Of a stretch of DNA of 64,000 nt, positions 4,103 through 40,832 are shown one piece after another (within the stretch, counting starts at the first letter, position 1; each line of letters opens with the position of its first letter). A model generated the notes under the pieces. That model was not told where the DNA came from and did no database searches. It saw nothing but the letters and a program-made list of their open reading frames with translations. This DNA comes from Octopus vulgaris (lineage: Eukaryota). The stretch is taken from assembly GCA_951406725.2 (NCBI GenBank), contig OX597834.1, positions 4,650,001 through 4,714,000 of the forward strand. The letters are read 5' to 3'. The translations under genes were made by a program, and so were the position numbers.

Positions 4103-4278
4103 TGGGGGAGAGTTCACGAAAAAGAAACAAAAGACGAAGACAGGTGGTGTACAAAACAAACAGATATATTAGTATAACGCTCAGGAATTGAAAAAGTATC
4201 TTACATTTCGAGCCTACGCTCTTCTACAGAAAGGGACCCAGAAAAAACAAGGAGAGAAACAATGTGTGTAATGGCTAC
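4103..4278 (-). mobile_element. TA-embedded short element with degenerate hammerhead-like motif (paralog of 33505-33696)
   Basis: High similarity to 33505-33696; minus strand CTTT-CTGTAGA-A-GAGC-GTAG-GCTC-GAAAT-GTA at about 4202-4233. Confidence 0.7.
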
Positions 4279-4380
4279 ATATATATATATATATATATAT
4301 ATATATATATATATATATATATATATATATATATATATATATATATATATATAATACGAAAGACAGAGCGTGCCAGACTA

Positions 4381-4568
4381 TTTTCCATCTTGCTGGCACG
4401 TTACGTAATAGCACCTATTTCCCGGTGTGGGATAAAGGTTTTAGTAAGTTATGATTCAAGTTGAAGTTTAGATATGAAATTTTAAAATTTAGCATCGAAA
4501 CCTTATTTTGGGTATGTCCCACACTGGGAAATAGATGCTATTACGTAGCGTGCTATGAAGATGGAAAA
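4381..4568. repeat. Imperfect inverted repeat, ~52-bp arms, ~85-bp spacer
   Basis: TTTTCCATCTT..GCACGTTACGTAATAGCACCTATTTCCCGGTGTGGGA versus TCCCACACTGGGAAATAGATGCTATTACGTAGCGTGC..AAGATGGAAAA. Confidence 0.85.
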
Positions 4569-4825
4569 GATTCGAGTACACCTTGTCTTCCATACCAATC
4601 ATTTAGAATATATTCAATGTGGAACGAGGAATTTCTAACGTAGACCGAACGACCAAACATCATTTACTGCGGATATGAAACCTGGTAGTCGTAAGATGAA
4701 ATCGAAGATTCTCTGCCGGCACTCTACTAGGGATCTACTCAAAATAAGGTTTGGATGTTAAATTTTAGAATTCTTATCAGAGCTTTGATTTTATATATAT
4801 ATATATATATATATATATATATATA

Positions 4826-5252
4826 TACTCTTTTACTCTTTTACTTATTTCAGTCATTTGACTGCGGCCATGCTGGAGCACCGCCTTTTTAATCGAGCAA
4901 CTCGACCCCGGGACTTATTCTTTTGTAAGCCCAGTACTTATTCTATCGGTCTCTTTTGCCGAACCGCTAAGTAACGGGGACATAAACACACCAGCATCGG
5001 TTGTCAAGCAATGCTAGGGGAACAAACACAGACACACAAACGCACACACACGCATATATATATATATATATATATATATATACATATATACGACGGGCTT
5101 CTTTCAGTTTCCGTCGATCAAATCCACTCACAAGGCTTTGGTCGGCCCGAGGCTATAGTAGAAGACACTTGCCCAAGGTGCCACGCAGTGGTATGAACCC
5201 TGAACTATGTGGTTGGTAAACAAGCTACTTACCACACAGCCACTCCTGTGCC
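4826..5252 (-). mobile_element. SINE family A, full length
   Basis: Same structure as 2970-3415. Confidence 0.92.
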
Positions 5253-5919
5253 TATATATATATATATATATATATATATATATATATATATATATATATA
5301 TATATATATATATATATATATATATATATATATACGAGGCGTTGTATATTCAAGCATACTTGTAGCACCAACTACTTGTAAAGACTGCTGTTCAAATGTA
5401 CGACTCAATCACCTCATATATTTGATAATATGTAAAATAGTATTTCCCCGAAAAGTCAATTTACAATGTTAACTGTAATAGAGAGTTTTAATCTTATCTT
5501 CACTAGGTTTGCCTGTAAACATCCATCATCGTCTGATTATTTTATTTCACACACAATTGCATTTTAAATCATATGCGATCGATTGAATATATTCATTGTC
5601 TTTGATTTAACGTTTAGATTACGTATTTTGCTTATATAGGTAATTTCATATGAATTTAATATTTATTATAATGCATATTTTGTGGCTTTCTTGTTTCAAA
5701 AAAGGTGATTATTTTTCAACCGAATATTATCGTAATTAATTTAACGAACTTGTATAAAAACTAAATGTTGACATGTTATAAAATAGTTTTTATACGCAAA
5801 AATAGTTCGTCATTAATCTTAATGCCACTTTCTTACAGGTTACTCAATTTTCCTTTGTAACGAAAACAGTTTGTTTTCAACATGAGATACATATTCAAAC
5901 GACCATAGATTATTTATAA

Positions 5920-39053: not shown

Positions 39054-39474
39054 TTCTCTTTTACTTGTTTCACATAATTTACTGTGGCCATGCTGGAGCA
39101 CCGCCTTTAGTCGAACAAATCGACCCCAGAACTTATTCTTAGTAAGCCTAGTACTTATTCTATCGTTCTGTTTTGCCGAACCGCTTAGTTACGGGGACGT
39201 AAACACACCAGCATCGGTTGTCAAGCGATGTTGGGGGGAACAAACACAGACAAACAAATATATACACAAACATACATATATATATACATATATATATGTA
39301 CATATATACGACGGGCTTCTTTCAGTTTCCGTCTACCAAATCCACTCACAAGGCTTTGGTCGGCTCGAGGCTATGGTAAAAGACACTTGCCCAAGGTGCC
39401 ACGCAGTGGGACTGAACCCGGAACCATGTGGTTGGTAAGCAAGCTACTTACACACAAACAACCATTCCTACGCC
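39054..39474 (-). mobile_element. SINE family A
   Basis: Same structure as 2970-3415. Confidence 0.92.
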
Positions 39475-39710
39475 TATAATTAATAATATGCAGAATATTA
39501 TATAGCTTAAATATAATACTTGTTACGCAGTTAATTACTAGTGTCACAGCCCCAGAAAATTTTGTGCAGCTCACAAGATGGGATGAACAAATAATTTCTG
39601 CAAATGTTGTCTATTAACCAGAGTACAAGAAAAAGAAATGGGTGAGAATTTTGGAAGTGTGATAGAAGTAATCCAAATTGGTTCCATACAACTACATATG
39701 TATAAAGGTA

Positions 39711-40009
39711 CTAGCAGTATCGCCCGGCGTTGCTCGGGTTTGTAAGGAAAATAACTATATAAGCATTTTTAGAGAGTCACTTCCTTTATATAACAGCAAA
39801 AAAATGCATTAAAAATGGGAAAAATTGATGGTAAATTTTTTTTTAAATCGTAGACTCATCGTAGACGCGTTCTAATACCCAGAAGGGCTCGATATGAATC
39901 ACGAATATAAGTTACTCGGTTTTGGTTAAACTGCACCGCAAAATGTGGGAGTAGTTAGGAATCTAAATCGTAGGAGACAGACACACAACCTTACTTTTAT
40001 ATATAAAGG
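39711..40009 (-). mobile_element. Non-autonomous Helitron (short variant)
   Basis: Reverse complement of 49661-50058 lacking one internal repeat; CTAG end and CCCGAGCAACGCCGGG hairpin. Confidence 0.85.
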
Positions 40010-40788
40010 TATATCACTCTTGAGCATTGATTGTAACGTCTTGCACAATATTACCATTGCGAAGTATCAGAAAACACATTCGTTCTTTACTTTACTTGGA
40101 AAGCGTAATCCACAAATGATGGTTACTGCTCTTCAAGAAGGCATGAGATAAGCTTGTCTTTTGGCTCTGTAAATTCCTGGCTTCTTCAATTCTCTTGCCT
40201 TATGATAATCTCCTTGTCTCTTCATTTTTCCACTTTTGTAGTTTGCCAGATATTCACAAAGTGAAAATCCTATTTTTTCTTGTATAATAACACACTCACA
40301 CTGCATTATATATGTTTTGACATTTGTGCTTTTGCAATATGACTTGTTTACTAAATCTTGCAGGCGTGTGACTCCATAAGGTCTCCCTCACTACCTCAGC
40401 CGGTGTAAAATAAATTTGAGATGTCAAATAATGGTGTCTATCATTAAGTCATATTGGGAAGGCTTGATTTGGGTTCATACGCAAGGGGAGAGTTAGTTTT
40501 TAATGGGATCTGTAAGGAAGCTAAAAGTTAGATCCATTTTCTGTTAGTTTCTGGTCCCGACTCAGTAACTTTCATACTTGTTTTCTAAACTTACATTAAG
40601 CTGTTTTCTTTCATCGTTCGTTATAAAGCAGCGATGTGTAAGTAACTTACTTTGAAATGATATAAGAAATTGTTGTATTAAGGAATGGTCACTTTACCAG
40701 TTTAGCCAATAAAAACACACGCACTATATATTTGGTGTCACTTTGCTTCAGTGTTATCTATTTTTTACATTAATCTTAATCTTACTTC

Positions 40789-40832
40789 GGCCAGAGTTCA
40801 TTCGTCACACTTCTGTGACCTCATCAGTGGTC
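40789..40832 (-). ncRNA. Hammerhead-like motif with one core substitution
   Basis: Minus GACCA-CTGATGA-G-GTCACA-GAAG-TGTGAC-GAAT-G-AA-CTC-TGGCC; perfect 6-bp helix II; A15.1 replaced by T. Confidence 0.62.

Follow-up and report, generated by a model that had tools for sequence, protein, structure and literature searches.

Hammerhead ribozyme motifs in a 64,000-nucleotide stretch of the Octopus vulgaris genome: probable 3′ ends of Penelope-like elements and two non-coding tandem repeats

Minimal type I hammerhead ribozymes that act as dimers occur in the pseudo-long terminal repeats (pLTRs) of metazoan Penelope-like elements (PLEs) (Cervera and de la Pena, 2014, PMC4209133), and PLEs that carry an endonuclease leave inverted truncated copies with a tail at one end and a bias toward (TA)n (Craig et al., 2021, PMC8557442). 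In the sole PLE studied in vitro, Poseidon PAc of Anolis, reverse transcription starts at two internal RNA sites and the gap between them equals the tail; both strands of AT-rich DNA are cut and extended, and hammerhead mutants had no effect on insertion (Frangieh et al., 2024, PMC11167929). Hammerheads at PLE ends, fold-backs, one-end tails, the (TA)n bias and the derivation of retrozymes from PLEs have all been published (PMC4209133; PMC8557442; PMC7229834; preprint 10.64898/2026.07.22.740005); here and below, statements about sources refer to the portions of their text that were available. The preprint, within that portion, contains the word "tail" nowhere and "inverted" once, and a paper on octopus repeats lists 31 recently active Penelope-like families with no occurrence of hammerheads in its text (PMC13282606). 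In the current study, we characterized the hammerhead motifs of a stretch of 64,000 nucleotides (nt) of Octopus vulgaris (positions 4,650,001 to 4,714,000 of contig OX597834.1, assembly GCA_951406725.2; G000:C21:4650001-4714000 in our coordinates, in a genome of 2.8 Gb), hereafter the window. It is highly probable that these motifs are the ribozyme-bearing 3′ ends of several PLE families, together with two non-coding tandem repeats. As annotation this is ordinary, since hammerhead PLE ends are known and abundant in animal genomes; the value is mechanistic, and concerns the origin of tandem and inverted PLE insertions and the possible use of PLE enzymes by retrozymes via circular RNA. No earlier literature report of the families of this window was found.

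A type I hammerhead descriptor was run on the window, which is AT-rich and dense in microsatellites, with 150 local dinucleotide shuffles as the control. The strict core (CUGANGA) gave 6 matches vs. a shuffle mean of 0.0 (maximum 0). The relaxed core, which admits any Watson-Crick 3-8 pair, C or U at position 4 and A or U at position 6, gave 12 vs. a mean of 0.36 (maximum 3), a count that is optimistic because the descriptor was composed after the motifs had been seen; one relaxed match, at 12560, may be due to chance. An earlier reading of the letters alone, hereafter the sequence-only reading, had placed full motifs at 14 sites. They lie where it located them, and 11 of the 14 pass the descriptor (8885, 10595, 16614, 17370, 17589, 22035, 22580, 23396, 32601, 33062, and 33599). 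The sites at 4202 (helix III contains a G-U pair, and helix I is short), 32407 (altered helix I) and 40789 (broken GAAA box) fail; each is a damaged member of a family that typically has the hammerhead fold. The hammerhead folds in the window are real. The inserts, put at about seven distinct ones, do belong to distinct families, but the count is eight, plus a ninth at 38629 that had been overlooked; the half motif noticed near 63810 is indeed only a GAAA/helix III/GUC half with no recognisable core. Elements bearing hammerheads make up ~9% of the window. An Rfam scan of the window showed no hammerhead family among the 150 of 195 matches listed, those matches being microsatellite-driven microRNA and small-RNA models. 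Microsatellites also dominated the output of the repeat finder, which nevertheless recovered the inverted arms. The features are given below with the class that comparison with other copies suggests; amino acids are abbreviated aa.

4103..4278, − strand: family A, truncated PLE 3′ end, worn copy; hammerhead 4199-4232, core CUGUAGA; longer copies reach a GIY-YIG frame
8801..9026, − strand: family X, truncated PLE 3′ end; hammerhead 8885-8917, with a compensated A3-U8 core pair
10494..10707, − strand: family B, likely truncated PLE 3′ end; hammerhead 10595-10629, canonical core
16517..17458, no single strand: family C, fold-back of two truncated Hydra-type PLE ends, long end on the left and short end on the right, both in (TA)n; hammerheads 16614-16676 (−) and 17370-17432 (+), core CCGAAGA
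17014..17166, + strand: last 50 codons and stop of the family C reverse transcriptase (RT)-GIY-YIG open reading frame; 48/50 identical to the frame at locus L234
17496..17692, − strand: family B, second copy; hammerhead 17589-17623, core CCGACGA
21749..23647, no single strand: family D, non-coding 545-bp unit; 2.45 tandem units (−) and 1.03 inverted units (+), outer ends at unit positions 296 and 205, in (TA)n; hammerheads 22035-22086 (−), 22580-22631 (−) and 23396-23447 (+)
32364..32885, no single strand: family E, fold-back of two truncated PLE ends, short end left and long end right; hammerheads about 32416-32496 (−, helix I damaged) and 32610-32690 (+)
32913..33288, no single strand: family F, partial copy of a non-coding ~480-bp tandem unit, a (−) part plus a short inverted piece that stops at the long end; hammerhead 33058-33115 (−)
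33506..33695, − strand: family A, second copy; hammerhead 33599-33634, core CUGUAGA
38623..38842, + strand: family G, overlooked by the sequence-only reading; hammerhead 38629-38674, A9G in this copy, family core canonical
40672..40922, − strand: family H, truncated PLE 3′ end, outside (TA)n; hammerhead about 40789-40833, GAAA box broken
51213-51829, − strand: old, broken remnant of a PLE reverse transcriptase, with 28% identity to the 781-aa protein described below (E 1e-7)
63732..64000, − strand: element I, old repeat; last ~25 bases and helix III half common with family C

The classes rest on longer copies elsewhere in the genome. For each family the 40 best candidates of a genome search were scored and 25–30 loci examined, the first-look candidate places, which are not copy numbers, being 2019 for A, 1100 for B, 1964 for C, 1408 for D, 1588 for E, 3234 for F, 3248 for G, 1379 for H, and 1358 for X. 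A connection of the motifs with PLEs had been proposed from the sequence and is borne out: longer copies of five families, with B a likely sixth, run into GIY-YIG endonuclease frames (RT and endonuclease in C and E, the endonuclease part only in A, H, and X), and all six are truncated at their 5′ side, at points that vary. By these alignments A, C, E, H, and X are 5′-truncated 3′ ends of protein-coding PLEs, and B is likely another. In family C, longer copies hold an RT and GIY-YIG frame of up to 605 aa whose stop codon lies inside the element, and window positions 17014-17163 agree with the 605-aa L234 frame at 48 of 50 residues (E 6e-34). The inserts had been called non-coding, and no PLE frame had been seen in the window; neither statement survives, since this segment codes for the final 50 aa of a PLE protein with RT and GIY-YIG domains and the PLE RT remnant lies further along. 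The protein of family C appears to be Hydra-type, because its DKT, CxCX5C, CxxC, and CxH marks match those of the Hydra clade (PMC8557442); no RWK motif is present in the 605-aa frame, so that it lies outside the frame or is absent. Copies of family E have more than 1.4 kb of upstream sequence in common, and at L382 a 693-aa RT-endonuclease frame is 35% identical to the family C protein and without its CxCX5C linker.

In family A, a walk in the 5′ direction from the longest copy crosses an untranslated stretch of ~700 nt and then enters a zinc-finger and GIY-YIG frame that is present at L340, L325, L336, and L343 (tblastn E 5e-15 to the 781-aa PLE). In family H, two of 25 loci share 1.4–1.5 kb of upstream sequence with a GIY-YIG frame (Pfam E 0.003, under the cut-off), and several family X loci reach 800–885 nt upstream into an endonuclease frame; at L111 an X-like end (71% identical) lies after a GIY-YIG match. 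For family B, an endonuclease frame is found at L377 about 2 kb upstream, beyond a CA-rich spacer, and L358 aligns from the end of that frame into the spacer, which also occurs at L376. With the Pfam GIY-YIG model, C and H score under the cut-off and A, B, and E are unmatched; for these families the evidence is motifs and tblastn. We presume A, B, H, X, and the 781-aa element to be "Neptune-type", from a zinc-finger linker and a resemblance. Apparent 8.5-kb tandem copies of family C on contig C2 proved to be a segmental duplication and not a long element. Element I has one relative among the examined loci (L374:1152-1343) and no recognisable hammerhead core.

A genome search with the Pfam GIY-YIG model returned 6136 candidates, of which 150 were scored, and many of these lie in intact 781-aa frames (RVT_1 E 5e-6; GIY-YIG E 5e-7). 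The genome would thus hold active PLE enzymes, as intact RT-GIY-YIG frames suggest. The 781-aa element has a hammerhead with a U3-A8 core variant, two end sites about 38 nt apart that are located in (TA)n, an upstream frame of ~480 aa that overlaps the RT-endonuclease frame, and a promoter-like repeat region with repeated CCAAT- and CRE (cyclic AMP-response element)-like boxes in its end region. It has no DNA match to the families of the window. Its copies at L121-L140 (e.g., L124:268-1704 and L122:1664-4006) are young and intact.

The insertion sites show a regular pattern. TA-type repeats adjoin 13 of 16 element 3′ ends in the window vs. a 7.8% background, in line with the preference for (TA)n proposed earlier, and in family D TA repeats follow the end at unit position 296 in all 17 cases. 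Each of the 13 head-to-head insertions of family D has one arm that stops at 296 and another that stops at 116-205 (at 193-205 in 11 of them). The same combination of one short and one long end holds for 32/32 distinct fold-backs with both ends readable, in four families (D 13/13, C 3/3, E 7/7, and F 9/9 distinct insertions), with a spacing between the ends, by the anchors used, of about 69 nt in C, ~100 in D, 145 in E, and 107 in F. The tandem and inverted layout expected of PLE insertions is found as tandem units in D and F and as inverted fold-backs in C, D, E, and F; tail and fold-back are thereby demonstrated in the coding families C and E. The fold-back arms of the window (16577-17469, 21834-23648, and 32359-32747) are 186–563 bases long and 95–100% complementary, and, if transcribed, could form long double-stranded RNA, a possible substrate for editing or silencing. 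Different PLE-type elements are also joined by TA tracts into chains, at 16517-17692 (C, B) and 32364-33695 (E, F, A). Each insertion leaves TA on both sides and may in this way create further targets.

Families D and F consist of non-coding tandem units with a type I hammerhead in each unit. The D unit has 545 bp, 33% GC and a folding z of −5.3; F has a ~480-bp unit laid out as in D, and the longest frames beginning with ATG are 45 aa in D and 58 aa in F. The 30 D loci examined represent 19 insertions, which are dispersed over many chromosomes and 98–100% identical. Unit divergence, taken from 15 of these 19, was 0.19% within one array (38/19810), 0.20% between opposite arms (25/12660), and 0.50% between separate arrays (2830/565284). 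Array-specific variants are common to the tandem units of D and, in three arrays including that of the window, to both arms, which fits one template haplotype per insertion. At L018:283-2981, a full unit and a unit lacking 153 bases follow each other in two successive rounds, which looks like repeated passage around a template of two units. PLE fragments beside D-locus L021 and F-locus L205 are separate neighbours and not parts of D or F. Contigs from four runs, whose RNA origin was guessed, span the D unit and a head-to-tail joint; they were not used as evidence, because tandem DNA yields an identical joint. The proposal that the elements are non-autonomous and mobilised in trans fits these two families only, most of the others being truncated coding PLEs; D and F are likely repeats of the retrozyme kind, copied in by PLE enzymes.

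How such insertions could arise may be pictured as follows. A PLE protein would cut both strands of a (TA)n tract, and reverse transcription would be primed from both DNA ends, each using its own internal RNA start site, with both sites 3′ of the hammerhead and separated by about 70 bases in C, 100 in D and F, or 145 in E. Copying would usually halt early, so that only the last 200–500 bases with the hammerhead are inserted, and the truncated complementary DNAs would be inserted singly or as two arms joined head to head. The RNAs of D and F would be copied in trans, and their template is likely a small circular or multimeric RNA, with the result that copying runs through several units. We lean toward a coupling of the two start sites within a single reaction; a circular template for D and F is a serious possibility, to which we give slightly less than an even chance. 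It is also conceivable, though doubtful, that the fold-backs record a coupled reaction in which a dimeric PLE enzyme on one RNA, in D and F a small circle produced by the hammerhead, primes both (TA)n ends at the two sites and rolls through several units from either end, with A3-U8, U6, and C4 as natural slow or protein-assisted hammerhead variants adapted to such a cycle. If that coupled reaction were true, the insertions would be direct genomic evidence for animal retrozymes as rolling-circle passengers of PLE enzymes.

The cores of the ribozymes differ by family. The core is canonical in D, E, F, G, and H, whereas U6 occurs in 30/30 copies of family A, C4 in 28/30 of B and 29/30 of C, and A3-U8 in all 19 readable of 25 copies of X; diverged A-like copies retain U6 and vary at position 7. 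Within families the copies are too alike to be informative on pairing, but across ten families or elements the helices remain paired despite sequence change, the 3-8 pair itself being C-G, A-U, or U-A, as had been noted of the helices between families. The description of minimal type I hammerheads with a palindromic helix III also stands, helix III being self-complementary with 0–4 bp in the monomer and 4–10 bp in the dimer. From these models, the hammerheads are predicted to cleave RNA as dimers and to release unit-length RNA, and several of the cores are probably slow. Natural U3-A8, A6C, and U4C hammerheads have lowered but real activity (PMC3088659). No literature report of a natural A3-U8 or U6 was found, and the paper of Lunse et al. 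on PLE hammerhead variants or the supplements of PMC4209133 may describe such variants.

Several observations weigh against the assignment of the motifs to PLE ends and tandem repeats, or against parts of the mechanism. The family statistics depend on the 40 best candidates of each genome search, and both ends were readable at just 4 C, 8 E, and 11 F loci of 30 each. The anchored end lies in (TA)n in only 3/22 copies of G and 7/21 of H. The coding link of family B depends on two loci, and no coding parent was found for G, whose copies match over at most about 160 nt upstream, or for D and F, which have no DNA match to eight coding-PLE 3′ regions. The shared variants of D are explained equally well by a circle and by a homogeneous tandem transcript as source. 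One alternative, which the sequence-only reading had preferred, is that every family consists of non-autonomous mini-elements with hammerheads (retrozymes) that are mobilised in trans. The copies in the window are short, D and F are non-coding tandem units, and of the 30 best copies each of A and of B, nearly all are below 250 bp; yet copies of A, C, E, H, and X, and probably of B, continue on the 5′ side into GIY-YIG frames, their truncation points vary, the C-terminus of family C's own protein is coded inside the window, and no tandem units were seen for A or B. For five families this view is largely refuted by the comparison of copies, and as an account of all families it is very improbable. 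Just as little, or a shade less, is to be expected of the view that the D and F arrays are satellite-like repeats derived from dead single pLTRs by unequal crossing-over rather than by RNA copying. Units of D are closer within arrays than between them, and local tandem amplification of retrozymes is discussed in the preprint (10.64898/2026.07.22.740005). Unequal crossing-over, however, predicts no head-to-head layout with one end of each type, whereas 13 of the 19 dispersed and nearly identical D insertions are head to head, with two fixed unit ends in (TA)n.

A different doubt concerns the ribozymes themselves, since the U6, C4, and A3-U8 hammerheads may no longer cut and may be retained as folded protein-binding elements or as passengers. 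The non-canonical cores of A, B, and C are family-wide and fall at positions where change lowers activity (PMC3088659), a further point against our interpretation, as are the predicted folds: the active dimer is the minimum-energy fold in family X, but lies 2–6 kcal/mol above the predicted minimum in G, F, and E and 8–19 kcal/mol above it in C, H, A, D, B, and the 781-aa element, in an energy model that leaves tertiary contacts out. Cleavage was also dispensable for insertion in vitro (PMC11167929). On the other side, family X retains a Watson-Crick 3-8 pair by a double change while the 781-aa element uses U3-A8, which points to selection on the catalytic core; helices pair although their sequences differ between families, and U4C is tolerated in vivo in a viroid (PMC3088659). 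Loss of cutting in these variants is thus a minority view that we take seriously, at odds well below even.

Other repeats of the window lie outside this argument. Open frames at 20466-21107 (+) and 18390-18752 (−) presumably represent mariner and pogo transposase fragments, which they resemble. A repeat like a short interspersed nuclear element (10 copies, including 3186-3418) and a five-copy array of a 184-bp tandem unit at 1232-2153 have no hammerhead match.

Compared with the hammerheads of PMC4209133, those described here also have a short helix I, one additional base separating position 9 from helix II, a palindromic minimal helix III and the U3-A8 variant, and G10.1-C11.1 is present in 8/10 parsed folds. 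Many unrelated families per genome, mostly as single truncated copies, and inverted pairs 100–700 bp apart are likewise described there. In contrast, A3-U8, U6, and C4 are family-wide here, whereas U3-A8 is the sole core change named in the available text, and C, D, G, and the 781-aa element have an extra base 3′ of helix II. The C-terminal GIY-YIG, 5′ truncation, inverted truncated copy, one-end tail and (TA)n targeting agree with Hydra and Neptune/Nematis PLEs (PMC8557442), but the tails are about 70–145 nt (38 nt in the 781-aa element) vs. 30–40 bp, and the linkerless protein of family E departs from the Hydra clade in CxCX5C. Unlike PAc, in which no strand difference in start site was reported and no homology was needed (PMC11167929), start sites here appear paired, one per arm, without exception among the readable fold-backs, and ends coincide with TA-like element bases. 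Families D and F resemble metazoan non-LTR (long terminal repeat) retrozymes in being non-coding, low-GC, strongly folding tandem units (PMC7229834; 10.64898/2026.07.22.740005), with one type I hammerhead per unit, in a genome with active PLEs. They differ in unit length (545 and ~480 bp vs. 150–450 bp), in carrying dimer hammerheads of the PLE type, in being known here as genomic DNA, and in insertions that show the two-end, fold-back signature of PLEs. Strict short/long pairing, long tails and core variants are modest, testable additions to what is described. A very young 545-bp family, the rule of one short and one long end, and natural core variants offer direct tests of how PLEs insert and of the use of PLE enzymes by retrozymes.

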